Assembly: GCA_902798825.1 (NCBI GenBank)
Contig: CADBYI010000009.1
Coordinates: forward strand, 4,721 to 68,720
Reading direction: 5' to 3'
DNA: 64,000 bases
Origin: an uncultured Eubacteriales bacterium
Lineage (GTDB): Bacteria > Bacillota > Clostridia > Christensenellales > CAG-138
Positions within the stretch are counted from its first letter, which is position 1; each line of letters begins with the position of its first letter. The notes under the pieces are model-generated. The model was not told where the DNA came from, searched no databases, and saw only the letters and a list, made by a program, of their open reading frames with translations. A program made the translations under genes and the position numbers. This document shows positions 21,535-53,366 of this stretch, piece by piece.

Positions 21535-21605
21535 CGTCAGTATCCAACCGGAGATATCCGGATGAACATTTGGGAATACCCCAAAATACAAAGGAGGAAC
21601 GAAAC

Positions 21606-23171: not shown

Positions 23172-23207
23172 GAATCTCGACATGCGTCACCATCCAATGT
23201 GATTCGC

Positions 23208-23240
23208 GGGGGCTCTCCGAGGATCGGAGAGCCCCCTTTT
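23208..23240 (+). terminator. Intra-operon attenuator/terminator after the binding-protein gene
   Basis: 13-bp stem gggggctctccga/tcggagagccccc, loop gga, followed by TTTT. Confidence 0.65.
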
Positions 23241-23273
23241 CACAAAGGACCTTTGCCCATAAGGAGTTAAGAT

Positions 23274-25099: not shown

Positions 25100-25100
25100 T

Positions 25101-26093
25101 ATGGAAAAAGAGAGATTATTGGAATGCACGGATTTGCACACCTCCTTCTTTATGGAGGGAGATCGCGAGGTCAAAGCAGTCAACGGCGTCTCCTACTACA
25201 TAGATAAGGGGGAGGTCGTCGCCGTGGTGGGCGAAAGCGGCTGCGGCAAGTCCGTGACCCAGATGTCCGTGATGCAGCTCATCAAGGCGCCGGGCAAGGT
25301 GCTGTCCGGAAACGTGACCTTCAACGGCGCGCCGCTGATGCAGGACGGAAAGCACGTGGCGGATATGAACAAGATCCGCGGCAACCAGATCGCCATGATC
25401 TTTCAGGAGCCCATGACCTCCCTGAACCCGGTGTTCACCGTGGGCGAGCAGATCGTGGATATCATCCGTCAACACAAAAAGCTCAGCAAGCGGGAAGCGT
25501 GGAAACTGGGCGAAAGCTCTCTGGCGGCCGTGGGCATTCCCGATGCGCCCGCCCGCATGAAGAACTATCCCTTTGAGATGAGCGGCGGTATGCGGCAGCG
25601 GGTGCTCATCGCCTTTGCCGTCGCGCTGGAATCGGAGCTGATCATCGCGGACGAGCCCACCACCGCCCTGGACGTGACCGTTCAGGCTCAGGTCATGGAG
25701 CTGCTGATGGACATCAAGCGCCGGAACAATTCCAGCATCATCGTCGTCACCCACAACCTGGGCCTGGTGTCCCGGTATGCGGACCGCATTTACGTCATGT
25801 ACGCCGGCCGCATCATCGAGTCGGGCACCAAGGAGCAGATACTCACCGATCCCAAGCACCCCTACACCAAGGGACTGCTGGCGGCAGTCCCCAAGCTGGA
25901 GAACAAGAAGCGGGATGCTCTCGTTCCCATCGACGGAGCGCCGCCCAGCCTGGTGGATCTGCCGGATCGCTGCGCATTCTATCCCAGGTGCACCTTCGCC
26001 GACGCAACCTGCGAGAAGCAGGGCTATCCCTGCCTCCGCCCCGTGGGGAAGAATCATTATGCAGCCTGCCATCTGGCCGCGGAGGAGGAGTGA
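25101..26093 (+). CDS. ABC transporter ATP-binding protein (DppD/OppD type)
   Basis: Walker A GESGCGKS, signature MSGGMRQRV, Walker B LIIADEPT, and an oligopeptide C-terminal domain with Cys residues. Confidence 0.9.
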   Translation: MEKERLLECTDLHTSFFMEGDREVKAVNGVSYYIDKGEVVAVVGESGCGKSVTQMSVMQLIKAPGKVLSGNVTFNGAPLMQDGKHVADMNKIRGNQIAMIFQEPMTSLNPVFTVGEQIVDIIRQHKKLSKREAWKLGESSLAAVGIPDAPARMKNYPFEMSGGMRQRVLIAFAVALESELIIADEPTTALDVTVQAQVMELLMDIKRRNNSSIIVVTHNLGLVSRYADRIYVMYAGRIIESGTKEQILTDPKHPYTKGLLAAVPKLENKKRDALVPIDGAPPSLVDLPDRCAFYPRCTFADATCEKQGYPCLRPVGKNHYAACHLAAEEE

Positions 26094-26095
26094 CC

Positions 26096-27106
26096 ATGGA
26101 TGCACAGAACAACATTATCCTCAGCGTACAGGGGCTGAAGGTACACTTCCCCCTGACCAAAGGCATCGCAAAGAAGCAAATCGGCTACGTGCGCGCGGTG
26201 GAGAACATCTCCTTCGATGTGGAACGGGGCAAGACGGTGGGCATCGTGGGGGAAAGCGGCTGCGGCAAGACCACCACGGGCAAGGCCATTTTGCGCATGG
26301 TGAAAGCCACCGAGGGCAGCATCTATCTGAACGGGCAGAACCTGCTGACCATGACGCCCCGTGAGCACGATCAGATCAAGCGAAAGGTTCAGATGATCTT
26401 CCAGGACCCCTACGGTTCCTTGGACCCCCGGCAGAAGGCCAGCTCCATCATTCGTGAAATACTGAGGGAGGATGGGGCCCATCACACGGCCAAGGAGCTG
26501 GACGACGAGGCCCTGCGCCTGCTGACCATGGTGGGCCTTTCGGAGGAGATTGGCGAACGGTATCCCCATGAGATGAGCGGCGGCCAGCGTCAACGGGTGG
26601 GCATCGCCCGGGCTCTTGCCTGCAACCCCGAACTGATCATCTGCGACGAGCCGGTCTCCGCCCTGGACGTTTCTATCCAGGCTCAGATCATCAATCTGTT
26701 GACCAGGCTCCAGAAGGAGCTGGGCCTCACCTACCTGTTCATCGCCCATGATCTGGCGGTGGTGCGGCATATTGCTGACACGGTATACGTGATGTATTTG
26801 GGCCAGTTCGTGGAGAAGATGAGCTCCGACGAGATGTTCAGCTCCCCCCTGCACCCCTATACGAAGGCTCTGCTCTCCGCCATCCCCGTGGTGGACTGCG
26901 AGGTGGAGAAGACGCGCAAGCGCATCGAGCTCTCCGGCGAGGTGCCGAGCCCCATCAACTGCCCCAGCGGCTGCCCCTTCCATCCCCGTTGCCCCTACGC
27001 CACGGATATATGCCGGGAAAAGATGCCGGATAGGGAAGTTGCCTTTGGGGACCATGAGGTGGCTTGCCATCACTATAAGGAACTGCTGCCCGTCAAGCAG
27101 CCATAA
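26096..27106 (+). CDS. ABC transporter ATP-binding protein (DppF/OppF type)
   Basis: ATG 26096. Walker A GESGCGKT, signature MSGGQRQRV, Walker B LIICDEPVSALD, and C-terminal SPINCPSGCPFHPRCPYA. Confidence 0.9.
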   Translation: MDAQNNIILSVQGLKVHFPLTKGIAKKQIGYVRAVENISFDVERGKTVGIVGESGCGKTTTGKAILRMVKATEGSIYLNGQNLLTMTPREHDQIKRKVQMIFQDPYGSLDPRQKASSIIREILREDGAHHTAKELDDEALRLLTMVGLSEEIGERYPHEMSGGQRQRVGIARALACNPELIICDEPVSALDVSIQAQIINLLTRLQKELGLTYLFIAHDLAVVRHIADTVYVMYLGQFVEKMSSDEMFSSPLHPYTKALLSAIPVVDCEVEKTRKRIELSGEVPSPINCPSGCPFHPRCPYATDICREKMPDREVAFGDHEVACHHYKELLPVKQP

Positions 27107-27128
27107 TCTTTCAAGGAGGAAAAACAGT

Positions 27129-28106
27129 ATGCCAGCACAAAAGAGTTTTCAGCAGTTGTTTGCCGAGAAGAAGGAGCTTCTCTGGGCCCCCTGCATCTAT
27201 GACTGCGTCAGCGCCAAGACGGCGGAGGACATCGGCTTCGAGGCTCTGACCATTTCCAGCTATGAGCAGCGGCATTCCTATTTGGGCTTCCCCAGCATGA
27301 CCCAGGATGAAATGTATGTCAGCGCGTCCTATATCCTGCGCTGCTCCAATCTGCCCATTCTGGTGGACGGAGAGGATGGCGGTGGCACGCCCATGGAGGT
27401 CTACAAAAACGTGAAGCGCTTTGCGGAAGCCGGCGCCAAGGCCATCTCCATCGAGGACATGTTCAACGATTCCGCCATCGGCCTTAGGGTGATCGGGGTC
27501 AAGACCTCCGGCAAAACCTACTCCATCCGGGACAGGATCATCCCCAGGGAGATCTGGGCCGCCAACGTGCAGGCGGCGGTGGAGGCCTGTAAGGGCACGG
27601 ACTGCATGGTCATCGCCCGGGTGGATTCCACCGAGACCATGGACCGGGGCCCCATCAAGATGCGGGGCAGGGCCGGCATCTCCTTTGACGAGGCCATCGA
27701 GCGGGCCAAGCTGGGCGTGAAGATGGGCGCCCCCATGACCATGATCCAGAACATATGCTATCCCGGCGGCGACGAGGAATGGAAGCGCATTCAGCGGGAG
27801 GTCCCCGGCTTCCACTGCTATCCCGACATCCACGGCGACAACGGCGTCAGCGATGTGGACGACGTGAGCAAGCTCTACGATCTGGGCTTCCAGATGATCA
27901 CCTGCCACGCCTTCATGAAGGGCGCCTGGAAGGGCATGCTGGAATACGGCCGTCACGTCTTTGAGGATAAGAACACGATCTTCACCGAAAACGACGACTT
28001 CGGCTATCCGATCTATCAGATCAGCCCCATCACCAATCCGGAAATCGCCCAGATGTCCGATCGTTGGGTGAATACCATTTTGACCCTGAAGGGCGAAAAC
28101 AACTGA
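27129..28106 (+). CDS. ICL/PEP-mutase-superfamily protein, paralogue C
   Basis: ATG 27129. WAPCIYDCVSAKTAEDIGF, LPILVDGEDGGG and ISIEDM. Length is 325 aa. Confidence 0.8.
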   Translation: MPAQKSFQQLFAEKKELLWAPCIYDCVSAKTAEDIGFEALTISSYEQRHSYLGFPSMTQDEMYVSASYILRCSNLPILVDGEDGGGTPMEVYKNVKRFAEAGAKAISIEDMFNDSAIGLRVIGVKTSGKTYSIRDRIIPREIWAANVQAAVEACKGTDCMVIARVDSTETMDRGPIKMRGRAGISFDEAIERAKLGVKMGAPMTMIQNICYPGGDEEWKRIQREVPGFHCYPDIHGDNGVSDVDDVSKLYDLGFQMITCHAFMKGAWKGMLEYGRHVFEDKNTIFTENDDFGYPIYQISPITNPEIAQMSDRWVNTILTLKGENN

Positions 28107-28125
28107 ATCCAAGGAGGAAACGAAA

Positions 28126-29076
28126 ATGGCAGCAGAAAAATCGATCAAACAGCTTCTGGAAGCGGGCGAATTTGTCTGGGCGCCCTGCATCTATGATTGC
28201 GTCAGCGCCCGGGTCGTGGAGATGGTTGGCTACAACGCCTGCCTGGTGTCAAGCTGCGAGCTGGAGTTCGCCATGAACGGCATTCCCGCGGGCCTGTATA
28301 ACTGGGAGGAGTATATCTGGGCGGCAGAGCGCATCTGCAACGCCACCAAGCTTCCCGTCATCATGGACGGAGAAAACGGCGGCGGCACGCCCATGCAGGT
28401 CTATCGCAACTGCAAGCGTCTGGCGGAGGCCGGCGTAATGGCCATCTCCATTGAGGACACCCTCTCCGGTGCCGTGGCGGTGGATTACGCCTACGGCCAC
28501 GGCCGCGGGTATATGGACAGGGAGCTGTGGGCCACCAACGTGGCGGCTGCCTGCGACGCCGTGAAGGGCACGGAGTGCATGATCATCGCCCGGACCGACT
28601 GCAAGGGCGGCGGCGCGGCCCAGACCGGCGCCATCGCTGACAACGAGTTTTGCCTGGGGCTGGACGAAGCCATCCTGCGGGCCCAAATGGGCGTTGCGGC
28701 AGGCGCACCCATCACCATGATCCAGAACATCTGCCATGCGGGCTGCAAGGATGAGTGCCTGCGCATTGCGCGGGAGGTTCCGGGATATCACTTTTATCCC
28801 GATGTGCACGCCACCAACGGGGTGCCGGATGCCACCCTGGAGGAGATGCAGGAATGGGGCTTCCAGCTGGTTTCCAACCATGCGGCCATGAAGGGCGCCA
28901 CCAAGGGCATGCTGGAATACTTCAGCAACAACTTCAAAAACCGCAACTCCGTCTACTCTGAAAACGACGAGTTCGGCTTGGGCCACGTGTTCACGCCCTT
29001 CAAGATGGAGAGCTGGATCGAGCGGGATAAGAAGTATATCGCCTACGAAAAGCAGTTGAGACAAGCCCGGAAATAA
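28126..29076 (+). CDS. ICL/PEP-mutase-superfamily protein, paralogue D
   Basis: WAPCIYDCVSARVVEMVGY, LPVIMDGENGGG and ISIEDT. Length is 316 aa. It lies 19 nt after paralogue C. Confidence 0.8.
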   Translation: MAAEKSIKQLLEAGEFVWAPCIYDCVSARVVEMVGYNACLVSSCELEFAMNGIPAGLYNWEEYIWAAERICNATKLPVIMDGENGGGTPMQVYRNCKRLAEAGVMAISIEDTLSGAVAVDYAYGHGRGYMDRELWATNVAAACDAVKGTECMIIARTDCKGGGAAQTGAIADNEFCLGLDEAILRAQMGVAAGAPITMIQNICHAGCKDECLRIAREVPGYHFYPDVHATNGVPDATLEEMQEWGFQLVSNHAAMKGATKGMLEYFSNNFKNRNSVYSENDEFGLGHVFTPFKMESWIERDKKYIAYEKQLRQARK

Positions 29077-29130: not shown

Positions 29131-30300
29131 ATGCGAAACAATCAAAAGCTCAAATCCATCCTGGCGATCCTGGCCATGTCCTTCATCACCCTGGCCGCCT
29201 CCGCCACCTCACCGGCCCTGGCGACGATCTCCAAAAGCTTTCCGGAGGCGTCGCCCACGGCCATCGCCTCCATCGCGACCCTGTCCAGTCTGACGGCGGT
29301 CCCCTGCACCATCCTCTCCGGCATGATCGCCGGACGCCGGGTGCGGTTCAGGACCCTGACCGCCCTCGGGCTCATCGTCACGTTCCTGGGGGGACTGCTG
29401 CCCGTGTTCGCCGGGAGCATCTATGAGATCCTGCTGGGCCGGGCCATCCTGGGCGTGGGCACGGGGCTCATCGCGCCGCTGACCAGCACCCTGGTTTTGT
29501 ATCTGTTCTCCGGGGACGAGGTCCCCAAGCAGCTGGGTCGAAACGCCATGGCCACCAACGTGGGCGCGGTGATCTTCCAGCTGCTGGGCGGGTATCTGTG
29601 CAACTACAGCTGGCGGATGCCGTTTTTGGCGTATCTGGCCATCCTGCCGGTACTGCTCATCGTGATCCTCTGCCTGCCGGAGCCCGAGAAGGGACCGGAG
29701 CAGGCGCGACAGAAGATCCAGCTTCGGCAGGTGGTGACCTTCCACGTGGTGGGCTGGGGCCTGTTCTACGCGGCCCACATGATCTTCTTCTACCCCATCG
29801 TCACGGAGATGTCCGGGATCGTGCTGCACAACGGGTACGGCGACGCCACCATGACCGCCCTGATCCTGTCGGTGATGACGGGCACGGGGGTGCTGGGCGG
29901 GTATCTCTTCTATCCCATCCACCGAAGGTGCGCCCTGATCACCTTCAGCGTGGGCTTCGGCCTCTGCGCCGCCGGGTACGTGCTCATGCTCCTGGCGGGC
30001 AGCGCATGGGGGCTGCTGCTGGCGGCGGCGGTGTTCGGGGTGGGGTACGGCCTGCTGGCGCCCACGTTCACCTACTATCTGGGGGTGCCGCTGAAGCCGG
30101 AGCTGCGGGCCGCGTCCCTTTCCGTGTACCACATCTGCTCCTCCCTGGGCTCCTTCGGCTCCGCCTTCGTGCTGAGCTTCCTGCGGCAGCTGGCGGGCAG
30201 CGGTCAGGAGCGCTTCTCCTTCGGGGTGGGGCTGGCGTTCTATGGGTTGGCCGCGGCGGCCGTCCTGCTTTGTTCCCTGCTGAAGCGGGACCGGGCCTGA
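29131..30300 (+). CDS. MFS transporter
   Basis: 389-aa hydrophobic protein with about 12 predicted helices and an MFS-like G-R-R loop (MIAGRRVRFR). Confidence 0.75.
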   Translation: MRNNQKLKSILAILAMSFITLAASATSPALATISKSFPEASPTAIASIATLSSLTAVPCTILSGMIAGRRVRFRTLTALGLIVTFLGGLLPVFAGSIYEILLGRAILGVGTGLIAPLTSTLVLYLFSGDEVPKQLGRNAMATNVGAVIFQLLGGYLCNYSWRMPFLAYLAILPVLLIVILCLPEPEKGPEQARQKIQLRQVVTFHVVGWGLFYAAHMIFFYPIVTEMSGIVLHNGYGDATMTALILSVMTGTGVLGGYLFYPIHRRCALITFSVGFGLCAAGYVLMLLAGSAWGLLLAAAVFGVGYGLLAPTFTYYLGVPLKPELRAASLSVYHICSSLGSFGSAFVLSFLRQLAGSGQERFSFGVGLAFYGLAAAAVLLCSLLKRDRA

Positions 30301-31768: not shown

Positions 31769-32221
31769 ATGAACTTTGGAACCATCGGCACCGAATACAG
31801 GTATGATTTTACCAATGCGGCCTTTCGGACCGCCTTCGCCTTTTTGAACCGGAACGATCTGGCCAGCCTGCCCGAGGGCTGGGTGGAGCTGGGCAACGGG
31901 GTCCGGGCGGACGTGCAGCGGTACACCACCAGCCCCGCCGGGGAGCTGTCCTTCGAGACCCACGAGAAGTTTTTCGACATCCAGTACCTCATCGAGGGCG
32001 AGGAGTATCTGGGCGTCTGCACCCGCAAGGGCCTCGTGCCCAAGACCGGGTATGAGGCGGCCCGGGACGTGACCTTCTACCATGACCCGGCCCAGGCGGG
32101 CCAGGTGCTGCTCCGGGACGGGGACTACGTGATCTTCGCCCCCGAGGACGCTCATAAGCCCCGTTGTCTGGTGAACGGGGCTATGGAGGTCCGCAAGATC
32201 GTGGTGAAGGTGCCGGTCTGA
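31769..32221 (+). CDS. YhcH/YjgK/YiaL (EbgC-like) family protein
   Basis: 150 aa with HEKFFDIQYLIEGEEYLG and VIFAPEDAHKP, motifs characteristic of this beta-barrel family. Confidence 0.75.
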   Translation: MNFGTIGTEYRYDFTNAAFRTAFAFLNRNDLASLPEGWVELGNGVRADVQRYTTSPAGELSFETHEKFFDIQYLIEGEEYLGVCTRKGLVPKTGYEAARDVTFYHDPAQAGQVLLRDGDYVIFAPEDAHKPRCLVNGAMEVRKIVVKVPV

Positions 32222-32236
32222 TCGGGAACTGTTTAC

Positions 32237-32764
32237 TTATACGTACTGTACGATTTCCTCCAGCGGCTTCCGGGGCCGGGGATTGGGGTCCTGGTCCCGG
32301 TAGCCCAGGGCGATGACGGAGAAAACGGCCTGGCTGTCGGGGATGCCGGCAGCGGCGCGGATGGCGTCCCCGTCCCGGATGCCCATGATCAGGGTGTCCA
32401 GCCCCAGCTCCCGGGCCCGCAGGCACAGGAGCATATTCTGGAGCCCCAGATCGTAGGCCCCCCACTGGTCCCCCAGCTCATTCACCGGCTCCGTCCCGCT
32501 GAACCCGGACACGCCCTTCTCATAGGCGGTGACGATCAGGGCCGCCTGGGCGCTGCTCTTTTGGTTGTAGGAGGGGAGGCAGGCGCGGATCTTCTCCTGG
32601 GCCTCGGGGGTCAGCGCCACATAATAGCGGCCCGTTTGCGCGTTTTTCCAGCTGGGAGCCAACTGAGCCGCCCGAAGGATTTCCTCCACCAGCGCCCGGT
32701 CCACGGGCGCATTTTTGTACGCGCGGACGCTCCGCCGCTCCTTCATGAGTGCCACAAATTCCAT
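32237..32764 (-). CDS. Nitroreductase-family protein
   Basis: MEFVALMKERRSVRAYKNAPV... and PSWKNAQ. Length is 175 aa. Confidence 0.85.
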   Translation of the reverse strand: MEFVALMKERRSVRAYKNAPVDRALVEEILRAAQLAPSWKNAQTGRYYVALTPEAQEKIRACLPSYNQKSSAQAALIVTAYEKGVSGFSGTEPVNELGDQWGAYDLGLQNMLLCLRARELGLDTLIMGIRDGDAIRAAAGIPDSQAVFSVIALGYRDQDPNPRPRKPLEEIVQYV

Positions 32765-32791
32765 CTGTTTTTCCTCCTTTGGATGCTCTGT

Positions 32792-33658
32792 TTATAAGCT
32801 GTGCAGCTCTAAATATGCCGACGGCGACATGCCGTATTCCTTGCGGAAGGCCCGGTAGAAGGCGGAGTAGTCCCCGAACCCCCACTGCCGATAGACCTCC
32901 CCCACGGCGGCGCCTCCCTGCATGGCGTCGCAGCAGGCGGCCAGCCGCTTTTTCAAAATGTACTGGTGGACCGACAGGCCCGTGTTCTCCCGGAACAGGT
33001 GGACCAGATAGTATTTGCTGAGATAGAATTCCCGCCCCAGGGCGTCCAGCGACAGGGGCTCGTCCAGGTGCTCGTCCACATAGTGGGTAATGGCCTCATA
33101 CCGGCTCAGCTGCTCCTTCCGGTTCCGGCGCTGCTCCTGCTCGTGGACGGTCCGGGACAAAAACAGCAGCAGCTCCGAGATGGTCAGGTCGATGGCCGTT
33201 TCCCGGGCGAACCGGTCCGCGTGTATCTCGTCCAGAAGGGTGAAGAGCCGGGTCCGAATGGCGTTGAAGGTGGGCGGGTCGAAGTGGTAGACGTACTTGC
33301 CCCGGTCCTCCGCCCGCCGCAGCAGATACCCATAGTCCGGGGACCGGCTCTCCAGGGCCTCCAAAAACGCCTTGCGCTGCCAGAAGACGAACCGGCGATA
33401 GGGCGTCTCGGAGTCGGACAGGATGGCCCTGTGATCCATGCCCGGGCGGATGACGATCACGTCCCCGGGGCGCAGGGGGTAGGCCTTTGCGCCGATGACC
33501 ATGGTCACGGCCCCCTCCTCGAAAAAGTACAGCTCGTAGTAGTCGTGGCTGTGGCTGCCCACGCTGCGAAAATGGGTGTCGCTGTAGTAGTACACCTCGT
33601 ATTGCTCGCTCAGCATATACTGGCGGGTGTTGAACTTGCTGCTCTGTCTTTTGGGCAT
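32792..33658 (-). CDS. AraC-family transcriptional regulator with N-terminal cupin sensor domain
   Basis: Starts at the internal ATG 33658 (MPKRQSSKFNTRQYML). The cupin region is HSHDYYELYFF, and the C-terminal AraC HTH is LSKYYLVHLFRENTGLSVHQYILKKRL. Confidence 0.9.
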   Translation of the reverse strand: MPKRQSSKFNTRQYMLSEQYEVYYYSDTHFRSVGSHSHDYYELYFFEEGAVTMVIGAKAYPLRPGDVIVIRPGMDHRAILSDSETPYRRFVFWQRKAFLEALESRSPDYGYLLRRAEDRGKYVYHFDPPTFNAIRTRLFTLLDEIHADRFARETAIDLTISELLLFLSRTVHEQEQRRNRKEQLSRYEAITHYVDEHLDEPLSLDALGREFYLSKYYLVHLFRENTGLSVHQYILKKRLAACCDAMQGGAAVGEVYRQWGFGDYSAFYRAFRKEYGMSPSAYLELHSL

Positions 33659-33695
33659 GGGCCACCGTCCTTTCCACCCCCCATTATAGCAACTT

Positions 33696-33710
33696 TTGCA
33701 ATATATGCAA
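33696..33710. promoter_or_regulatory. Inverted repeat TTGCA-N5-TGCAA in the araC/SDR divergent region
   Basis: ttgcaatatatgcaa has perfect 5-nt arms. It is a candidate operator. Confidence 0.3.
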
Positions 33711-33782
33711 CAATCAAAACAATAGATTGTGACGATTCTTTTCGATACAATGTTTTCATAAACCAAGAGGAGGTTTTATATC

Positions 33783-34634
33783 ATGATGCCCAATGTTCTC
33801 AACACCGATTTGACCGGCAAGGTGGCCGTGGTCACAGGCGCGGGCGGCGTGCTCTGCTCCGCATTTGCCAAGGTCCTGGCCCGGGCCGGCGCCAAGGTGG
33901 CTTTGCTGGATCTGAACTACGACGCCGCGGACAGATTCGCCCAGGAGATCGTGGCGGAGGGCGGCGTGGCCAAGGCCTACAAGTGCAACGTGCTGGACAA
34001 GGATATCTGCTACGCCGTGGCGGATCAGGTCCTTTCCGACCTGGGCCCCTGCGACATCCTGCTCAACGGCGCCGGCGGCAACAACCCCCGGGCCACCACG
34101 GACAAGGAGTATTTCGAGCTGGGCGACATCGAAGCGGACACCAAGAGCTTCTTCGATCTGGACAAGTCCGGGGTGGAGTTCGTGTTCAACCTGAACTTCA
34201 TCGGCACCCTGATCCCCACCCAGGCCTTCGCCCGCCAGATGGTGGGCCGGGAGGGGGGCAACATCCTGAACATCAGCTCCATGAACGCCTATACGCCGCT
34301 GACCAAGATCCCCGCCTATTCCGGCGCCAAGGCCGCCATCAGCAACTTCACCCAGTGGCTGGCCGTCCACTTCTCCAAGGTGGGCATCCGGGTCAACGCC
34401 ATCGCCCCCGGGTTCTTCTCCACGGCCCAGAACGCGGCCCTGCTGTGGAACCCAGACGGCACCCCCACCGCCCGCACCGGCAAGATCCTGGCCGCCACGC
34501 CCATGGGCCGCTTCGGCCAGCCCGAGGAGCTGAACGGCGCCCTGCTGTTCCTGCTCAACAACGAGGCCGCGGGCTTCGTCACCGGCGTGACCATCCCCAT
34601 CGACGGCGGTTTCTCCGCTTACTCCGGCGTCTAA
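33783..34634 (+). CDS. SDR-family oxidoreductase (candidate fructuronate/mannonate oxidoreductase)
   Basis: TGKVAVVTGAGGVLC is the Rossmann motif and YSGAKAA is the catalytic YxxxK. Length is 283 aa. The substrate call rests on context only. Confidence 0.8.
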   Translation: MMPNVLNTDLTGKVAVVTGAGGVLCSAFAKVLARAGAKVALLDLNYDAADRFAQEIVAEGGVAKAYKCNVLDKDICYAVADQVLSDLGPCDILLNGAGGNNPRATTDKEYFELGDIEADTKSFFDLDKSGVEFVFNLNFIGTLIPTQAFARQMVGREGGNILNISSMNAYTPLTKIPAYSGAKAAISNFTQWLAVHFSKVGIRVNAIAPGFFSTAQNAALLWNPDGTPTARTGKILAATPMGRFGQPEELNGALLFLLNNEAAGFVTGVTIPIDGGFSAYSGV

Positions 34635-34637
34635 GAT

Positions 34638-34663
34638 CCATCGAAAAACAAGTTTTTCGATGG
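34638..34663 (+). terminator. 12-bp hairpin after the SDR gene
   Basis: Stem ccatcgaaaaac/gtttttcgatgg, loop aa. No clear T-run follows. Confidence 0.4.
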
Positions 34664-34749
34664 GGTCAGCTGCGGCTGGGCTTTGCACCGTTGCCTAAAA
34701 TGCTGTGCATTTTCGGGCGGCAACGGCGAAAGGTGTAAAATTCACCGCG

Positions 34750-34791
34750 CATGTCGCTGGATTTTACGGATCGGCAGCAGACGTTCTTCCT
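34750..34791. repeat. Second copy of the intergenic repeat cores seen at 3383-3425
   Basis: catgtcgctggattt (34750-34764) and gttcttcct (34783-34791) are separated by 18 nt, against 19 nt in the rrf2/nifS insert. Confidence 0.6.
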
Positions 34792-34881
34792 TTGCAGCTG
34801 ACCAGCGGGCGTCTACAACGCCCTTGCGTTGCCCGCCAAAGATACATTACATTTTCCAAGTTTGATTGATTTAAGAAAGGC

Positions 34882-35961
34882 ATGTGTATCACCATGAAAA
34901 AGAATTACAAGTACGCCATCGCCTGCCCCACCAGCATGGGCCTTCGGATCACCCCCCAGGATCGCATGGCGGTCCACAACAGCAACCTGTTCTATCTGCA
35001 GGCCACCAGCGCCGAGAGCAACGTGCTGAACGTGTCCTCCTCCCTGGGCAAGGAGTGTCTGGTGCTGACCAAGTTCGTGGAGGGCAGCCCCATGGCCGCC
35101 TTCATCAAGGCCCAGCTTCGGGCCCGGAACATCCGCTACGAGGGCCTGGACGTGGCCCAGGGCGGCCCCTGGGGCTATCGCCACCAGTTCAACATCGCCG
35201 ACTCCGGCTTCGGCCTCCGGGCTCCCCGGGTGTGGAACGATAGGGCCGGTGAAGTGGGCCGGACCCTTAGCGCCGACGACTTCGATCTCGACAGGATCTT
35301 CGGCCAGGAGGGCGTGGGCATCCTGCATCTCTCCGGCCTCATCGCGGCCATGAGCGAAGATACCACCAAGTGCTGCCTGGAGCTGGCCCGCGTGGCCAAG
35401 AAGTACGGCACCCTGGTCAGCTTCGACCTCAATTACCGGGCCACCTTCTGGGCCGGCCGGGAGGCGGAGCTGAAGGCGGCGTTCCACGAGATCGCCTCCG
35501 TGGCCGATATCCTCATCGGCAACGAGGAGGACTTCCAGCTGTGCCTGGGCTTTGCCGGTCCCGAAGCGGGCGGCAAGGAACTGGGGAGCAAGATCGACCG
35601 GTTCAAGGGCATGATCGAGCAGGTCAGGGCCAAGTACCCCAACGCCAAGGCCTACGCCACCACCCTGCGGCAGGTGATCTCCGCCAACGAGCACCTCTGG
35701 GGCGCCATCCTCTACGCGGACGGCCAGTGGTTCGTGGAGGAGCCCCGGCCCATCCAGGTCATGGACCGGATCGGCGGCGGCGACGGGTTCTCCGGCGGCC
35801 TGCTGTATGCCGTGCTCCAGGGCTGGGACGCCGAGAAGTGGCTCCAGTTCGGCTGGGCCTCGGGCGTGCTGGCGGCCTCCAGTCTCAACGATTACGCCGA
35901 GCCCGCCGACGAGAAGCAGGTTTGGGATGTGTATAAGGGCAACGCCCGTGTTCAGCGATAA
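34882..35961 (+). CDS. PfkB-family sugar-acid kinase (KdgK-like)
   Basis: 359 aa. [16 protein letters not shown] is the PfkB signature 2. There is an alternative start at 34894 (MKKNYKY). Confidence 0.8.
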
Positions 35962-35980
35962 AGAAAAGGAGAAAAGTTTT

Positions 35981-37432
35981 ATGAAGAAAGCAGACATCGG
36001 CCTTATCGGCCTGGCCGTCATGGGCGAAAATTTGGTCATGAACATGGAGAGCAAGGGCTTCACCGTGGCCGTCTTCAACCGGACCACCTCCAAGGTGGAC
36101 GCCTTTGTGGAAGGCCGGGCCGCCGGCAAGAACATCATCGGCTGCCACAGCCTGGAGGAGTTGGTGGCAAACCTGGAAAAGCCCCGGAAGGTCTTCATGA
36201 TGGTGAAGGCCGGCAGCGCCGTGGACAGCATGATCGACCAGCTGCTGCCCCTGCTGGAGGACGGGGACATCCTCATCGACGGCGGCAACAGCCACTTCCC
36301 CGACACCATCCGGCGGACGGAGTATGTGGAATCCAAGGGCAAGCTCTACATCGGCACCGGCGTGTCCGGCGGCGAGGAGGGCGCCCTGAAGGGACCCTCC
36401 ATGATGCCCGGCGGCTCCCCCGCGGCCTGGCCCTATGTGAAGCCCATCTTCCAGGCCATCTGCGCCAAGGTGGAGGACGGCTCCCCCTGCTGCGACTGGG
36501 TGGGCGAGAACGGCGCGGGCCACTTCGTGAAGATGGTCCACAACGGCATCGAGTACGGCGATATGCAGCTCATCTGCGAGGCCTATCAGCTCATGCGGGA
36601 TCTGCTGGGCCTCTCCTATGAGGAGATGCACGACATCTTCACCAAGTGGAACGAGACGGAGCTGGACTCCTATCTGATCGAGATCACCCGGGACATCCTG
36701 GGCTTCAAGGACGAGGACGGCTCCCCCCTGGTGGAGCACATCCGGGACACCGCGGGCCAGAAGGGCACCGGCAAGTGGACCGGCATCGCGGCCCTGGACG
36801 AGGGCGTGCCCCTGACCCTCATCGGCGAGGCCGTGTTCGCCCGGTGCCTGTCCGCCATGAAGGAGGAGCGGGTGGAGGCCGCCAAGGTCTTCGATCGGAA
36901 GATTCCCGCCTTCACCGGCGACAAGGAAGCCTTCATCGAGGCCATCCGGCAGGCCCTCTTCGCCTCCAAGATCATCTCCTACGCCCAGGGCTACACCCTG
37001 ATGCGCACGGCGGCGGAGCACTACGGCTGGAATCTGAACTACGGCGGCATCGCCCTCATGTGGCGGGGCGGCTGCATCATCCGCAGCGTCTTCCTGGGCA
37101 AGATCAAGGAAGCCTACGACAAGAACCCCGACCTCAGCAATCTGCTGCTGGACCCCTACTTCAAGGAGACCATCGAGAAGCTGGTGCCGTCTTGGCGCAC
37201 CGTGGCCGCCGCCGCCCTATCCTACGGGGTGCCCGCCCCGGCCATGACCTCCGCGCTGAGCTACTTCGACGGCTACACCACCGAGCGGCTGCCCGCCAAC
37301 TTGCTGCAGGCCCAGCGGGACTACTTCGGCGCCCACACCTATGAGCGGCTGGACGCGCCCCGGGGCCAGTTCTTCCACACCAACTGGACCGGCCACGGCG
37401 GCAACACGGCGGCCACCACCTATAACGCGTAA
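35981..37432 (+). CDS. gnd: 6-phosphogluconate dehydrogenase (decarboxylating)
   Basis: ATG 35981. [48 protein letters not shown] and [19 protein letters not shown] are classic Gnd blocks. Confidence 0.9.
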
Positions 37433-37444
37433 GCGGAGCCGTTT

Positions 37445-38731
37445 ATGAACGACATCTATCTCTATGCAAAAACCGACGCGGGTCTCTCCCTGGACGAGAT
37501 CCGCGTCGCCCTGCTGGAAAGTCTGGAGGGCCGGGACCTTCACAAGGTGCTGATCCTGCCCCCGGACTTCACCCGCTTCCACTCGAACGCGGGCTTCATC
37601 ACCAACGTCTACTATCACGCCCTGGTGGACAGCGGCGTCCAGGTGGACATCCTGCCGGCCCTGGGCACCCACGTGCCCGTGACCCGGGAGCAATGGGCGA
37701 CCATGTTCGGAGATATTCCCTACGAGCGGATGCTGGTCCACAACTGGCGGACGGACGTGGTCCAGCTTGGCCAGATCCCGGCGGACTTCGTGTCCGAGAT
37801 CACCGAGGGCCTTTGGACCGACCCCGTGGTGGCGGAGGTGAACCGGCGGGTCATGGACGAAAGCTATGACCTCATCATCTCCCCGGGCCAGGTGGTGCCC
37901 CACGAGGTCATCGGCATGGCCAACCATGCCAAGAACCTGTTCGTGGGCGTGGGCGGCAGTGACATGATCAACAAGTCCCACATGATCGGCGCGGTCTACG
38001 GCATGGAGCGGATGATGGGCAAGGACAACACCCCTGTCCGCAAGCTCTTCGACTATGGCATGGCGCACTTTTTGAACCGGCGGCCCCTCCTCTTCGTGCT
38101 GACGGTGAACACCGCCCCCGGCGGGCACATCCACACCCACGGCCTGTTCATCGGCGAGGGCCGGGACTGCCTCACCGAGGCCGTGAAGCTGGCCCAACAG
38201 AAGAACATCGACTTCGTGCCCCACGGGCTCAGGAAGTGCGTGGTGTATCTGGACCCCTCGGAGTTCAAGAGCACCTGGCTGGGCAACAAGGCGGTGTATC
38301 GGACCCGCATGGCCATGGCCGACGGCGGCGAGCTCATCGTGCTGGCCCCCGGCGTGGAGCGCTTCGGAGAGGACGACCAGGTGGACAAGCTCATCCGCAA
38401 GTACGGCTATCGGGGGCGGCTCCACACCCTGGAGGCGTTCAGGAAGCCCGAGAATCAGGACCTTCGGGACAACATGGGCGCCGCGGCGCACCTGATCCAC
38501 GGGTCCTCCGACGGCCGGTTCACCATCACCTACGCCGTGAAAAACATCACTAAGGAAGAGGTGGAGGGCGTGGGCTTCGTGGCCGCGGATTACGACGAGA
38601 TGGCGAAGAAATACGATCCCCATGCCCTGCAGTACGGCTACAACACCGTGGACGGGGAGCAGATCTACTTTATCCCCAACCCGGCCCTGGGTCTTTGGAT
38701 CGACCGGGAGCGCTTTGAAAAGGAGAACTAA
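37445..38731 (+). CDS. LarA-like (lactate racemase N-terminal/DUF2088 superfamily) putative nickel-pincer 2-hydroxyacid epimerase
   Basis: 428 aa with PPDFTRF and ALGTHVP. PHEVIGMANHAKNLFVGVGGSDMINKSH gives H-10-K-16-H spacing, like LarA His174/Lys184/His200. Confidence 0.6.
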   Translation: MNDIYLYAKTDAGLSLDEIRVALLESLEGRDLHKVLILPPDFTRFHSNAGFITNVYYHALVDSGVQVDILPALGTHVPVTREQWATMFGDIPYERMLVHNWRTDVVQLGQIPADFVSEITEGLWTDPVVAEVNRRVMDESYDLIISPGQVVPHEVIGMANHAKNLFVGVGGSDMINKSHMIGAVYGMERMMGKDNTPVRKLFDYGMAHFLNRRPLLFVLTVNTAPGGHIHTHGLFIGEGRDCLTEAVKLAQQKNIDFVPHGLRKCVVYLDPSEFKSTWLGNKAVYRTRMAMADGGELIVLAPGVERFGEDDQVDKLIRKYGYRGRLHTLEAFRKPENQDLRDNMGAAAHLIHGSSDGRFTITYAVKNITKEEVEGVGFVAADYDEMAKKYDPHALQYGYNTVDGEQIYFIPNPALGLWIDRERFEKEN

Positions 38732-38734
38732 GCT

Positions 38735-40117
38735 ATGAAGCCCTTTATGGACAAGGATTTTCTGCTGGAAACGGACACCGCGAAGCATCTGTTCCATGAC
38801 ATCGCGGACAGCATGCCCATCATCGACTACCACTGCCATCTGATCCCCCGGGAGATCTATGAGGATCGGCAGTTTGAGAACATCACCCAGGTCTGGCTGG
38901 GGGGCGACCACTACAAGTGGCGGCTCATGCGCAGCTTCGGCGTGGAGGAGCGGTTCATCACCGGCGACGCCTCGGACCGGGAGAAGTTCCAGAAGTGGGC
39001 CGAGACCTTGAGCCTGGCCATCGGGAACCCCCTGTATCATTGGAGCCATCTGGAGCTTCAGCGGTACTTCGGCTATGAGGGGATTTTGAACGGCGACACC
39101 GCCCAGGCGGTGTGGGACCTGTGCAACGCCAAGCTCCGGGAGAGGGATTTCTCTGCCCGGAATCTGATCGTCAAGTCCAACGTGAAGGTGGTCTGCACCA
39201 CCGACGATCCGGCGGACACCCTGGAATGGCATCAGAAGATCGCGGCGGACGGCTTCCCCGTGAAGGTGCTGCCCAGCTTCCGGCCCGACAAGGCCATGAA
39301 TCTGGAGAAGCCCGAGTATCTGGACTACCTTTCCAAGTTGGGCAGCCCCAGGACCTACGCCCAGTTGGTGCAGGTGCTCCAGGAAAAACTGGCCTTCTTC
39401 GTGTCCCTCGGCTGCCGGGTCAGCGACCACGCCGTGGAGTCCGTGCCCTATGCCCCCGCCACCGAGGCGGAGCTGGAGGCCATCTTCCAAAAGCGGCTCT
39501 CCGGGACCATCCCCACCGCCCAGGAGCAGAAGCAGTTCAAGACCGGCCTGCTGCTCATGCTGGGCCGGTGCTACGCCAAATACGGCATCGCCATGCAGCT
39601 CCACTTCGGCTGCATCCGGGACAACAACCAGTACATCTACCGGCTGTTGGGCCCCGACACGGGCGTGGATTCCATCGGCGACCCCTCGTCGATGAAGGAG
39701 CTGGTGGGGCTGCTGAACGCGTTGGCGGAGAAAAACGAGCTCCCCAAGACCATCCTCTACTCCCTGAACCCCACGGAGAACGCGGCCATCGGCACCATCA
39801 TCGGCTGCTTCCAGGGTCCCGAAGCCCGGGGCAAGATCCAGCACGGCAGCGCCTGGTGGTTCAACGATCATGAGAAGGGGATGCTGGATCAGATGACCAC
39901 CCTGGCTTCCGAGGGCGCCCTGGCCGCCTTTGTGGGCATGCTCACCGATTCCCGCAGCTTCCTCTCCTACGCCCGGCACGAGTATTTCCGCCGGCTTTTG
40001 TGCAACCTCATCGGCAACTGGGTGGAGAAGGGCGAGTTCCCCAACGACGAGAAGGCTCTGAGAACCATCGTGGAAGGCATCTGCTACAACAACGCCAAGG
40101 CGTATTTCGGCTTTTGA
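38735..40117 (+). CDS. uxaC: Glucuronate isomerase
   Basis: MKPFMDKDFLLETDTAKHLFHD..PIIDYHCHL..GDHYKWRLMR is a UxaC hallmark N-terminus. Length is 460 aa. Confidence 0.9.
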   Translation: MKPFMDKDFLLETDTAKHLFHDIADSMPIIDYHCHLIPREIYEDRQFENITQVWLGGDHYKWRLMRSFGVEERFITGDASDREKFQKWAETLSLAIGNPLYHWSHLELQRYFGYEGILNGDTAQAVWDLCNAKLRERDFSARNLIVKSNVKVVCTTDDPADTLEWHQKIAADGFPVKVLPSFRPDKAMNLEKPEYLDYLSKLGSPRTYAQLVQVLQEKLAFFVSLGCRVSDHAVESVPYAPATEAELEAIFQKRLSGTIPTAQEQKQFKTGLLLMLGRCYAKYGIAMQLHFGCIRDNNQYIYRLLGPDTGVDSIGDPSSMKELVGLLNALAEKNELPKTILYSLNPTENAAIGTIIGCFQGPEARGKIQHGSAWWFNDHEKGMLDQMTTLASEGALAAFVGMLTDSRSFLSYARHEYFRRLLCNLIGNWVEKGEFPNDEKALRTIVEGICYNNAKAYFGF

Positions 40118-40180
40118 TTCGCAGCGGCAGCTGCCAAAATGACAAGGGGGAAGGGACCGCAAAGTCCCCTCCCCCTTTTG

Positions 40181-40978
40181 TTATGCAAGCGTGACGGAGG
40201 CGATGTATTCCACCCCGTCCGGGGCGGCGATGGCCGGGTCGCTGACGTCCACGGCGGGAGAAAGACCCTTCTCCCTGGCCCCCAGGACGAAGTGGCAGAG
40301 GGCGATGCCCAGATCGATCTTCTGCATATCCCCCACGGCGTCGCTGACGTAGCCCCTGTCGTGCTTGAGATAGAAGTGATAGGTCCCGTTCCGTAGGATC
40401 ACCCGCCAGGGCTGTTTGTTCACCGCCGAGGGGGCCCACCGGACCAGCTCCAGCAGATCGTCCGCCGCCGAAAGGGGGGTGTCGAAGTTCTCCTGGAAGA
40501 ACAGCTTCTCCCGGGGCAGGCGGCTGTCCGCGTCGACGCCCCGGCGCATGATGGCCTCCCGCAGCGAGCGCTTGGCCGCCGGATACCCCAGGGGGCTGAC
40601 GCAGGGCATCCTCTCCCCCTCCCCCAGCTCTGCGGCCGCCGCGAACAGCTCCCGCTTCATGGTGCCGCCGATCCACACGGAGCCCACGCCCAATGACCAG
40701 GCGTATAGGAGCAGCGCCTCCATGGAGAAGCCGCAGGCCACGTCCCCATAGGGAACCTTGGGGACCTTCCCCGCCACATACAGGGGTTCGCCGGTCAGCA
40801 CCGGGCTGGAAAGGCCCTTTTCCTTGGCGTCCAGGAACACGAAGGTCACCGGGATGTCGAAGGGGTTCTCCGCCCCGGCGGCGAAGGTTTTGAGCTTTTG
40901 CGCTGTCGCCTCCTCCAGGGGTCGTCCGTCGAAGGTGCGCACGCTCTTGCGCGTCAGCATGGTGTCCGCTGTGATCAT
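40181..40978 (-). CDS. Nitroreductase-family protein (long form)
   Basis: Starts at the internal ATG 40978 (MITADTMLTRKSVRTFDG). APSAVNKQPWRV is also present. Confidence 0.75.
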   Translation of the reverse strand: MITADTMLTRKSVRTFDGRPLEEATAQKLKTFAAGAENPFDIPVTFVFLDAKEKGLSSPVLTGEPLYVAGKVPKVPYGDVACGFSMEALLLYAWSLGVGSVWIGGTMKRELFAAAAELGEGERMPCVSPLGYPAAKRSLREAIMRRGVDADSRLPREKLFFQENFDTPLSAADDLLELVRWAPSAVNKQPWRVILRNGTYHFYLKHDRGYVSDAVGDMQKIDLGIALCHFVLGAREKGLSPAVDVSDPAIAAPDGVEYIASVTLA

Positions 40979-41090
40979 GTTCGTCGCTCCTTTGGGATTT
41001 TTATATATTGTACTATGGCCCCTGCCTGCCGTCAACCGCAGACAAAGGACGGACTGCTTTGCAGTCCGTCCTTCATGATTTCGTCCTATA

Positions 41091-45671: not shown

Positions 45672-47644
45672 TCAGGCCTTCATGCCCCGGACCGCTTCGG
45701 CTACCAGCTCGTCGTCGGCCACATAGGGCATGGTGATATGATCCGTGCCGGCGTTCAGGCGGTTGTACTCCGCCGCGGTGGCCATGGCGTTCTCGTTCCG
45801 GGCCCAGCTGCGGCGGGCCACGCCCACCATGGTGTCCCAGGGCATGGCCATCCGAAGGATGGTGTCCACCCGCTCGGAGCCGTCCAGCACCATGCCGAAG
45901 CCCCCGTTGATGGCCCGGCCGATGCCCGTGCCGCCGCCGTTGTGGAGGGCGATGTAGCTCATGCCCCGGGCCGCGTTGCCGGCATAGCACTGGGTGGCCA
46001 TTTCGGCCATGATGTTGGAGCCGTCCTTGATGTTGGAGGTCTCCCGGAAGGGGGCGTCGGTGCCGCCGGTGTCGTGATGGTCACGGCCCAGGATCACGGG
46101 GCCGATCTCCCCGTTGCGCACCATTTCGTTGAACTTCAGGGCGATGTTCATGCGGCCCATGGCGTCCTGATAGAGGATGCGGCACTGGGTGCCCACCACC
46201 AGCTTGTTCTTCTTGGCGTCCCGGTGATGTATTCCGCGGCGGCCGCGTCGGTCTTGTCCAGATCCTCCGGGTTCCGGGAAAGGCAGCACCAGCGGAAGGG
46301 ACCGTAGCCGAAGTCGAAGAGCTGGGGCCCCAGGATGTCCTCCACGTAGGAGGGGAACACGAAGCCGTCCAGATCGTTTTCGCCGTTCTTGCAGACGCTC
46401 TTCACGCCGGAATCGTAGACGGCCTTCAAAAAGCTGTTGCCGTAGTCGAAGAAGTAGGTGCCCTTCTCGTGGAACTTGCAGATCATCTCATAGTGATGGT
46501 GCAATGTCTTGTCCACCAGCTTGCGGAAGGTGTCGGGATCCTTGTCCAGCATCTCGGTGCGCTCTGCGAAGGTAAGGCCCTGGGGGCAGTAGCCGCCGTC
46601 ATAGGGCACGTGGCAGGAGGTCTGGTCGCTCATAAGGTCCACATGGACGTTCTTCTCATAGAGGTACTCCAGCAGATCCACGATGTTGCCGTTGTAGGCC
46701 ACGGCGCAGGGCTCCCCGGCCTTCTGGTGATCGAGGGCGATCTGCACGGCCTCCTCCAGGCTGCCGGTCCGGTGGCTCACCCAGCCCTGGGTATAGCGGG
46801 TGTCGATGCGGGAGTCGTCCACCTCGGCGATGATGGAGGCGGCGCCGGCGATCATGGCCGCCTTGCCCTGGGCGCCGCTCATGCCGCCCAAGCCCGCGGA
46901 AACGAACAGCTTCCCGGCCAGGTTCTCATCGTTGGGGATGCCCAGCTTCAGCCGGCCTGCGTTCAGCAGGGTGTTGAAGGTGCCGTGGACGATGCCCTGG
47001 GGCCCGATGTACATCCAGCCGCCGGCGGTCATCTGGCCGTAGTTGGCCACGCCCAGGGCCGCCGCCCGGTTGAAGTTCTCCTGATCGTCGAAGGTGCCCA
47101 CCATGAGGCCGTTGGTGATGATGACCCGGGGGGCCAGCTTGTGGGAATGGAACAGGCCCAGCGGATGGCCGGACATGACCACCAGGGTCTGCTCATCGGT
47201 CAGGGCCTCCAGATACTTCTTGATGAGCCGATACTGCATCCAGTTCTGGCAGACCTGGCCGGTCTCGCCGTAGGTGGTGAGCTCGTAGGGATAGAGGGCC
47301 ACGTCGAAGTCCAGGTTGTTGTCGATCATGACCTGGATGGCCCGACCTTCGATGCAGTTGCCCTTGTACTCATCGATGGGCTTGCCGTAGAGCTTGCCGG
47401 CGGGGCGGAAGCGATAGCCGTAGATGCGGCCGTGCTCCTCCAGCTCCTGGGCGAACTCACGGGCCATCTGGGCGTGATGGTCGGGGTGGATGTACCGAAG
47501 GGCGTTCTTGATGGCCAGGGCCTTGTCGGCCTCGGTCAGATGGGACTCCCGGCGGGGGGCCCGGCGATAGCCCGGCTCCAGAGCGGGGTATTCAGGAAGA
47601 TCGTAATCCAGGGTAAGAGTTTCTGCCGTGTTGAGATCAGTCAT
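45672..47644 (-). pseudogene. hutU: Urocanate hydratase, reading frame disrupted near 46221-46240
   Basis: The N-terminal ~470 codons (MTDLNTAETL... to ...PEDLDKTDAAAAE) lie in the frame of ORF 46148-47731. The C-terminal ~183 codons (HHRDAKKNKLVVGTQCRILYQD...GRDHHDTGGTD...) lie in the frame of ORF 45672-46289. Total length is 1973 nt, which is not divisible by 3. Confidence 0.85.
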
Positions 47645-53363: not shown

Positions 53364-53366
53364 AGT

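Follow-up and report, generated by a model that had tools for sequence, protein, structure and literature searches.

A LarA-like epimerase, a KdgK-related kinase and 6-phosphogluconate dehydrogenase in a clostridial uronate cluster: a candidate dehydratase-free, redox-neutral hexuronate branch

Introduction

In the rumen and gut, the uronic acids that come from pectin, hemicellulose and host glucuronides rank as major substrates. In the classical Ashwell isomerase pathway they are degraded by UxaC, UxuB or UxaB, UxuA or UxaA, KdgK and Eda, and this route consumes reducing equivalents. Here, we analyze a gene cluster that may encode a route without the dehydratase and the 2-keto-3-deoxy-6-phosphogluconate (KDPG) aldolase. 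It lies at positions 33783-40117 of a 64-kb stretch of DNA (the window) from an uncultured Eubacteriales bacterium (GenBank assembly GCA_902798825.1, contig CADBYI010000009.1, positions 4,721 to 68,720). The route itself is already known, having been proposed in 2012 and given biochemical support in 2020 and 2024, and is thus not a new kind of pathway; the cluster is also one of hundreds in public assemblies. Its new element relative to the published systems is a PfkB-family kinase, here called Kin2.

For Thermotoga, Rodionova (2012, as cited in PMC7583248 and PMC6978723) proposed that mannonate is converted to gluconate and further to 6-phosphogluconate, which enters the pentose-phosphate pathway. 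Desguin (2020, PMC7583248) reported that the LarA homologs GntE1 and GntE2 epimerise D-mannonate to D-gluconate, which agrees with the initial annotation of our locus, where such a D-gluconate 2-epimerase of the LarA type had been mentioned. The same work suspected another native substrate for GntE1, a member of LarA homolog group 19, and put forward the hypothesis that group 18 also epimerises a hexonate. The genomic context of group 18 given in its Table S1 includes a short-chain dehydrogenase/reductase (SDR; 36%), 6-phosphogluconate dehydrogenase (32%), a ribokinase-family kinase (16%), glucuronate isomerase (UxaC; 12%) and KduI (12%), as frequencies of COGs among three genes per side in 25 genomes, and comes with no pathway interpretation for Clostridia. 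Urdiain-Arraiza (2024, PMC11770544) described LarAH15 of Phytophthora nicotianae as a narrow-spectrum GntE with a Km of 9.4 mM and a kcat of 111 s-1 on free mannonate.

In Lactobacillus suebicus, Valk (2020, PMC6978723) found a dehydratase-free route leading from galacturonate through tagaturonate, fructuronate, mannonate and 6-phosphogluconate to ribulose-5-phosphate. There, a mannonate kinase acts first and a 6-phosphomannonate 2-epimerase second, and the genes were left unassigned. Beyond that study, our literature searches found no assignment of genes for a mannonate kinase or a 6-phosphomannonate epimerase.

The window cluster follows the same logic as the Thermotoga maritima locus (GntE TM0442/LarAH20/4NAR, gntK, SDR, gnd), in which a LarA-family C2 epimerase stands between a fructuronate reductase and a kinase and is accompanied by Gnd. 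In both, UxaE brings in galacturonate, and the catalytic residues around the cofactor, a nickel-pincer nucleotide (NPN), are identical. They differ in that the window epimerase, a member of group 18, shares only 26% identity with TM0442, that a KdgK-like PfkB protein stands in place of the annotated gluconate kinase, that the operon includes uxaC and that the host belongs to mesophilic rumen and gut Clostridia. The hybrid isomerase-phosphoketolase pathway of L. suebicus is likewise dehydratase-free and redox-neutral; it was demonstrated physiologically, with GntK homologues as candidate kinases (PMC6978723), whereas the route in the window is predicted from clustered genes. With the Ashwell pathway, the window shares the upper part (UxaC and fructuronate reductase). 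The lower part would instead consist of epimerase, kinase and Gnd, and neither a dehydratase nor a KDPG aldolase turned up in the 64 kb and approximately 18 kb of flanks.

Results and Discussion

Organization of the cluster and proposed route

Every called gene in the 64 kb was scanned with profiles from Pfam and NCBIfam. A uronate isomerase, a fructuronate reductase, a putative C2 epimerase, a candidate hexonate kinase and a 6-phosphogluconate dehydrogenase are all encoded within 33783-40117. The features of the cluster, together with its regulator and the distant epimerase gene uxaE, are as follows.

32792-33658 (open reading frame (ORF) extendable to 33766), minus strand: AraC-family regulator; HTH_18 69.7 bits, HTH_AraC, AraC_binding/cupin 44 bits
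33783-34634, plus strand: SDR, fructuronate reductase (UxuB function); NF006132 'D-mannonate oxidoreductase' 433 bits, cutoff 281
34635-34893, no strand: 259-nt spacer between the SDR and kinase genes, read directly from the sequence
34894-35961, plus strand: PfkB-family kinase (Kin2); PF00294 70.8 bits, gathering score 25.8
35981-37432, plus strand: gnd, NADP-dependent decarboxylating 6-phosphogluconate dehydrogenase; TIGR00873 764 bits, equivalog cutoff 426.7
37445-38731, plus strand: LarA-like protein, LarA homolog group 18; NF052594 617 bits, cutoff 500
38735-40117, plus strand: uxaC, uronate isomerase; PF02614 673 bits, NF002794 606 bits (cutoff 387)
40144-40177, no strand: 15-bp G+C-rich hairpin, likely operon terminator, from the terminator scan
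14475-15920, minus strand: uxaE, tagaturonate-fructuronate 3-epimerase; PF16257 554 bits over profile positions 1-474 of 475

The kinase, gnd, LarA-like and uxaC genes are tightly packed, with gaps of 19 nt (35962-35980), 12 nt (37433-37444) and 3 nt (38732-38734). This operon, the SDR gene preceding it and the divergent AraC gene are as the initial annotation had described them, and the gene that it called UxaE-like encodes a true UxaE. Its assignments of the SDR, Gnd, LarA-like protein, UxaC and UxaE all passed the cutoffs of curated hidden Markov models (HMMs); the SDR model, NF006132, is at the subfamily level and is not an equivalog. The likely terminator sits between the convergent uxaC and nitroreductase genes. 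Another hairpin, rich in A/T, is found at approximately 34637-34660, directly past the SDR stop codon in the 259-nt spacer. The terminator scan gave no consensus terminator in this spacer, and an Rfam scan of 32000-41000 (E<=1), spacer included, returned no match; the spacer probably holds an internal promoter or a regulator site.

Neither UxuA, UxaA, UxaB, Eda/KdgA, a conventional GntK nor LarB/C/E was found among the called genes of the window, which bears out the earlier claim that mannonate/altronate dehydratase and KDPG aldolase are missing from it. Contigs of the same species, which continue the window by approximately 10 kb on its left side and 8 kb on its right side, contain none of these genes either.

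We give an about even chance to the reading that the cluster forms a redox-neutral hexuronate branch into the pentose-phosphate pathway in which the epimerase acts before the kinase. UxaC would convert D-glucuronate to D-fructuronate and D-galacturonate to D-tagaturonate, and UxaE, encoded at 14.5 kb, would convert D-tagaturonate to D-fructuronate so that galacturonate joins the same route. The SDR would then reduce D-fructuronate with NAD(P)H to D-mannonate, which the group-18 LarA enzyme would invert at C2 to yield D-gluconate. This epimerisation is expected to employ a covalently bound NPN, two catalytic histidines and a transient hydride transfer via a 2-keto intermediate. The KdgK-like PfkB kinase would phosphorylate D-gluconate at C6, and Gnd would turn 6-phosphogluconate into ribulose-5-phosphate and CO2 while giving back the NAD(P)H that the SDR had consumed. 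Our analysis establishes to which families the proteins belong, which active-site residues they have, how the operon is built and that its synteny is conserved; the substrates, and the order of epimerase and kinase, are what we infer. The initial annotation had arrived at the same already published sequence from uronate through gluconate to ribulose-5-phosphate, and the HMMs, the active site and the synteny support it.

Conservation of the cluster in related genomes

A search with the LarA-like protein, restricted to one genome per species, returned at least 539 loci, the best 80 of which (74-89% identical) were analyzed. A metagenome scan centred on the kinase added another 80 loci (61-82% identity). 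Genes of the relatives were called by a per-locus codon-usage model with interval scheduling and then clustered, because longest-ORF calling was unsuitable for this DNA with 63% G+C, in which antisense ORFs of up to 981 aa swallowed real genes. Neighbor frequencies refer to 49 loci with >=3.6 kb of upstream sequence (upstream-room set) or 44 loci with both flanks.

Most of the 80 LarA-like loci belong to Clostridia of the rumen and gut (Oscillospiraceae, Christensenellales and Lachnospiraceae), and some to Kiritimatiellae and Lentisphaerae. Their core runs from the kinase gene through gnd to the LarA-like gene; optional genes for a Cof-type HAD phosphatase and then the SDR stand between gnd and the LarA-like gene, and uxaC may follow the latter. 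The most conserved neighbor of the LarA-like gene is gnd, found in 38 of the 49 upstream-room loci; the kinase is found in 36. Among the 44 loci with both flanks, kinase and gnd occur together in 34, the SDR in 17, uxaC in 11 and the full set in 10. Of the neighborhood that the initial annotation had singled out, the kinase-gnd-LarA part is conserved in 34 of 44 other species, too many for the arrangement to be due to chance, and uxaC in 11. Over all 80 related loci, the SDR is in the cluster in 29 and uxaC directly follows the LarA-like gene in 23, and UxaE is encoded within or beside the cluster in three (L008, L011 and L048). In the kinase-centred metagenome set (n = 80), the kinase gene is adjoined by LarA (n = 31), gnd (n = 35), SDR (n = 27), UxaE (n = 13) and uxaC (n = 11).

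Genes for the synthesis of the LarA cofactor accompany some of these clusters. In L018, the LarA-like gene is directly followed by larE-larB-larC, larB and larC are near the cluster in L059, and larB is near it in L041 (all confirmed by NCBIfam); larB/larC/larE are also beside the cluster in L090. The conserved kinase-gnd-LarA synteny, the SDR, UxaC and UxaE neighbors and the downstream larE-larB-larC genes in some relatives all fit the proposed route. Both lower branches, dehydratase and epimerase, are found in one locus in L075, L102, L122 and L164. Their presence side by side points to mannonate as a branch point that serves to balance redox.

The 11 loci that lack gnd bear the label Kiritimatiellae, Lentisphaerae (including Victivallales) or only “uncultured bacterium”, and the LarA gene is located among unrelated housekeeping genes there. 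Nine loci (L028, L057, L058, L064, L065, L071, L073, L074 and L077), from MAGs with Kiritimatiellae or Lentisphaerae/Victivallales labels and some with the label of uncultured bacteria only, have group-18 LarA genes that are 75-80% identical to those of Clostridia, with PPIase, malic enzyme, GNAT and glutamine synthetase-like neighbors and neither kinase nor gnd. These genes could result from horizontal transfer or be a binning artefact.

Several further genes recur next to the cassette. The Cof-type HAD-IIB sugar-phosphatase gene between gnd and the LarA-like gene (e.g., L020:2699-3532 and L018:9165-9998) is absent from the window; proofreading of phospho-hexonates and a 6-phosphogluconate phosphatase activity are both possible roles. 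In 12 low-G+C metagenome loci, a gene for a PdxB-like protein (PdxB, 4-phosphoerythronate dehydrogenase) is located between the LarA-like gene and gnd (L148:10366-11493, L139:6329-7333), and in six of these it is accompanied by a Gfo/Idh/MocA oxidoreductase gene. Since the protein passes the cutoff for true PdxB (450 vs 434 bits), this gene was rejected as a pathway component and probably reflects lineage synteny, though it may be a sign that phosphorylated sugar acids undergo C2 chemistry. Two GH28-like genes (beta-helix, pectinase-type, judged by eye) are found directly upstream of the kinase/LarA-like pair in L114 (2254-7943) and L134 (5189-7939) and connect the cassette with the degradation of pectin there.

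The LarA-like epimerase and the order of epimerisation and phosphorylation

The LarA-like protein is above the cutoff of NF052594 (“nickel-dependent putative hexonate epimerase”), and all other LarA models give at most 46 bits. NF052594 represents LarA homolog group 18 of Desguin 2020, to which the predicted protein belongs by this match. A PDB sequence search gave 4NAR (TM0442, GntE2; 1.6e-31) as its sole match and did not reach L. plantarum LarA; the residues were therefore mapped by aligning the protein with the group 18, 19 and 20 sequences of the published Dataset S2 (PMC7583248). It is 61% identical to Clst_2415 of Clostridium stercorarium and 51% to ACP_2683 of Acidobacterium capsulatum, both in group 18, and only 27% to GntE1 (group 19) and 26% to GntE2 (group 20, TM0442).

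Residues D41, R44, H76, H153, K163, H179 and K282 correspond to D72, R75, H108, H174, K184, H200 and K298 of LarA, and all seven mechanism residues are invariant columns across the alignment of the three groups. In LarA, H108 and H174 form the catalytic pair, K184 tethers the NPN and H200 is a nickel ligand (PMC7583248). The group-18 signature is kept as E154-V155 after the second histidine, W278-L279-G-N281-K282 (W-L-x-N-K) and AAAHLIH (A-A-x-x-L-I-H). Groups 19 and 20 differ from group 18 at one listed specificity position (I262 column), where group 18 has lost an arginine (R to S). The window protein thus shares an identical specificity signature and 51-61% identity with listed group-18 members, for the bacterial representatives of which the activity is a prediction. 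We propose that it is an NPN-dependent D-mannonate/D-gluconate 2-epimerase resembling GntE, which possibly acts on the 6-phosphates.

Very probably, assay data for one group-18 enzyme already exist. The cloning primer of LarAH15 encodes MATLLFAEG, and the LarA domain of P. infestans PITG_09435, a protein listed in group 18 in Dataset S2, begins with the matching “MTLLFAEG”.

A number of points weigh against the proposed route, in which the epimerase acts first and on free mannonate. The activities of the cluster enzymes, like those of the group-18 members of Clostridia, are predicted, and LarAH15 is placed in group 18 by the primer match to an orthologue and not by its full sequence. No PfkB-family gluconate kinase turned up in our literature searches. 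Approximately 16 long metagenome contigs carry a Kin2-like kinase with no LarA or gnd nearby; in 13 of them, the neighbors of the stand-alone gene are unrelated housekeeping genes that are uninformative on the substrate. No larBCE genes were found in the window or its extensions of about 10 kb. The Km values of GntE for free mannonate are 9-120 mM (PMC7583248, PMC11770544), and L. suebicus extracts did not epimerise free mannonate and did interconvert the 6-phosphates (PMC6978723). The physiological substrate may therefore be 6-phosphomannonate.

The main alternative, less likely though possible, is that the kinase comes first, with Kin2 as a D-mannonate 6-kinase and the group-18 enzyme as a 6-phospho-D-mannonate/6-phospho-D-gluconate 2-epimerase; the overall route would be the same. 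The L. suebicus extracts required ATP before epimerisation and accumulated 6-phosphomannonate, and the proteome of this organism had an abundant TM0442 (LarA) homologue, which fits such an order, but its candidate kinases are GntK homologues and not PfkB proteins (PMC6978723). The lowest of the assayed GntE Km values for free mannonate (range 9.4 to 120 mM) belongs to LarAH15, probably a group-18 enzyme, and its kcat/Km of ~1.2e4 M-1 s-1 on that substrate, similar to that of T. maritima GntE2, argues mildly the other way. So does the group-18 pocket, where the arginine is lost and no phosphate-binding residue is gained. In the genomes, Kin2 is tightly co-inherited with the epimerase and has a substrate pocket unlike that of KdgK, and in 30 of 80 relatives the Cof-type sugar-phosphate phosphatase gene separates gnd from the LarA-like gene, all in favor of phosphorylation as the first step; against it, the GntE2 gene of T. 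maritima adjoins a gene annotated as gluconate kinase (gntK). We regard as possible, and no better than tentative, a further identification of Kin2 and the group-18 enzyme with the two orphan activities of L. suebicus, D-mannonate 6-kinase and 6-phospho-D-mannonate 2-epimerase. If this were true, the “gluconate 2-epimerases” with millimolar Km values measured so far would be phospho-hexonate epimerases.

The PfkB kinase Kin2

In the classical reading, Kin2 is a divergent 2-keto-3-deoxygluconate (KDG) kinase and uxuA and eda are located elsewhere in the genome, with LarA and Gnd serving a separate gluconate catabolism or a conversion of gluconate to mannonate that feeds UxuA. The data cover the window and approximately 18 kb of flanks rather than the remaining genome, which leaves room for such genes, and UxuA and long-chain UxuB adjoin the cluster in L027, L038, L039, L042 and L075. 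The nearest HMMs and structures of Kin2 are moreover KDG kinases, the best PDB match being T. maritima KdgK (2AFB, 5e-34). Kin2 is nevertheless below all KdgK equivalog cutoffs (NF041332 90/440, NF040938 59/400 and NF052444 32/400 bits) and scores 172 bits against a cutoff of 700 on trifunc_aldol, on the kinase half of this aldolase-kinase fusion model.

Kin2 passes the PF00294 threshold as a member of the PfkB family and has the catalytic GxGD motif as DRIGGGDGF. It has the PfkB fold and this motif in common with the KdgK enzymes of T. maritima (TM0067, 2AFB) and Thermus thermophilus (1V1A), but is at most about 35% identical to them and is paired with gnd and the epimerase instead of eda. 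In an alignment with T. thermophilus KdgK (1V19), Kin2 keeps Tyr89, Arg105, Arg167 and the catalytic Asp, while Tyr103 is replaced by Asn. In T. thermophilus numbering, Arg105 and Arg167 are what we take to be the carboxylate-binding pair of KdgK, and Tyr103 is presumably a residue of the KDG pocket. Kin2 orthologues are 77-94% identical and invariant at W114-N115-D116-R117, R182 and D297; the W-N-D-R motif, including Asn115, is present in 38 of 38. Metagenome homologues of Kin2 read R-V-x-N-D-R, with one outlier whose motif is divergent, and KdgK paralogues residing in the same loci read K-V-V/I-Y-D-R at this site.

Six loci encode both kinases. The decisive one is L075, with the gene order uxuA-uxuB-kdgK-eda-Kin2-gnd-LarA and an eda match of 267 bits; on the kinase-half model of trifunc_aldol, the first kinase scores 475 bits and the second, Kin2, 165 bits. 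The second kinase of L075 is 80% identical to the window kinase, and the first, a true KdgK, is 35% identical to it over a local alignment of 221 aa. A KdgK-type kinase is also found in addition to Kin2 with LarA and gnd in L102, L122, L131, L154 and L164, with Eda beside KdgK in four of the five. Throughout the six loci, Kin2 is in the gene run of LarA and gnd, and wherever there is an eda gene, KdgK is its partner. This paralogue evidence contradicts the classical reading, as do the Tyr-to-Asn change and the translational packing of the window kinase with gnd, LarA and uxaC, and we consider that reading unlikely.

Judged from these comparisons, Kin2 is a conserved paralogue of KdgK and not KdgK itself. 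We conclude that it represents a distinct, predicted sugar-acid kinase subfamily dedicated to the epimerase/Gnd branch, probably as a gluconate kinase or possibly as a mannonate kinase. A candidate for a conventional GntK beside gnd (gene cluster n17) was rejected, as by eye its sequence looks like IMP dehydrogenase.

Last, the group-18 enzyme might act on another hexonate (e.g., L-gulonate/L-idonate, D-altronate/D-allonate or an aldarate) and be linked to gnd only indirectly, as NCBIfam and Desguin 2020 go no further than “putative hexonate epimerase” for group 18, a different native substrate was suspected for GntE1 (PMC7583248) and the SDR model is of subfamily level, but we find this improbable given that gnd is the most conserved neighbor, that only gluconate or its 6-phosphate joins the C2-epimerised UxaC/SDR product to Gnd without extra enzymes and that LarAH15 is narrow-spectrum for mannonate/gluconate among the substrates tested (PMC11770544).

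Regulation and transport

The divergent AraC protein probably activates the cluster genes. The regulator is called as 288 aa in the same-species contig L002. An orthologue adjoins the cluster in six other species, and a second AraC type does so in three. Two more genes of the window may belong to uronate utilization.

16171-17118 (possible start 16108), plus strand: LacI-family regulator, divergent from uxaE; Pfam LacI and Peripla_BP_3
29131-30300, plus strand: major facilitator superfamily (MFS) permease; PF07690

All NCBIfam LacI-family matches of the regulator beside uxaE are under their equivalog cutoffs, and the MFS permease has no NCBIfam equivalog. An MFS orthologue and a gene corresponding to the DUF386 gene of the window (31769-32221) adjoin uxaC in the relative L006, which makes the permease a weak candidate for uronate uptake.

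In the region between uxaE and the permease gene (17676-29076), genes of the PEP-mutase/isocitrate-lyase superfamily form two tandem pairs (17676-19494 and 27156-29076). An ApbA/PanE-like reductase gene, a cyclase-family gene and an Opp-type ABC transporter are located between the two pairs, and all genes of the region are under equivalog cutoffs. The reductase, cyclase, MFS and DUF386 genes of the window also have counterparts next to the uronate cluster of L006.

Other features of the window

The closest public relatives of the window are rumen metagenome-assembled genomes (MAGs) labelled Clostridiales or Christensenellales. The window has a G+C content of approximately 63% and includes the sporulation genes for SpoVAD and SpoVAC (52338-53732).

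A histidine-utilization cluster encodes HutI, FTCD, HutD, FTHFS and urocanase. The urocanase gene hutU (45672-47644) is split into two overlapping ORFs with a junction near 46224/46225. Here, the window lacks 46 bp of the otherwise 100% identical same-species contig L001, in which the gene is intact at 672 aa; the split stems either from a deletion that shifts the frame or from faulty assembly.

Just left of the window, the same-species contig L166 (1031-6084) encodes a FecCD/Peripla_BP_2 ABC transporter, a CGGC-domain protein and a CbiK/CbiX-type chelatase. A connection with nickel or cobalt handling is possible, but these genes are not larBCE. The genes at 5377-10538 look like an ordinary dlt-like D-alanylation set. 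They comprise those of an MBOAT protein and an AMP-binding enzyme and a carrier-like ORF of 77 aa; two further ORFs have no annotation, and one of these gives a weak GDSL match.

Significance

MAGs of the Oscillospiraceae, Christensenellales and Clostridia type commonly carry the cassette, as do many environmental contigs, and it is paired with one specific kinase. Being redox-neutral, an epimerase/Gnd route changes fermentation balances, and a route of this kind is wanted for engineering pectin conversion (Valk 2020, PMC6978723). Kin2 and the LarA-like protein provide two clonable candidates for the question whether free or phosphorylated mannonate is epimerised and for the kinase gene. On the tentative identification with the L. 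suebicus activities, Kin2 would at minimum constitute a third, non-homologous family of hexonate 6-kinases, derived from KDG kinase by a Tyr-to-Asn change in the pocket.

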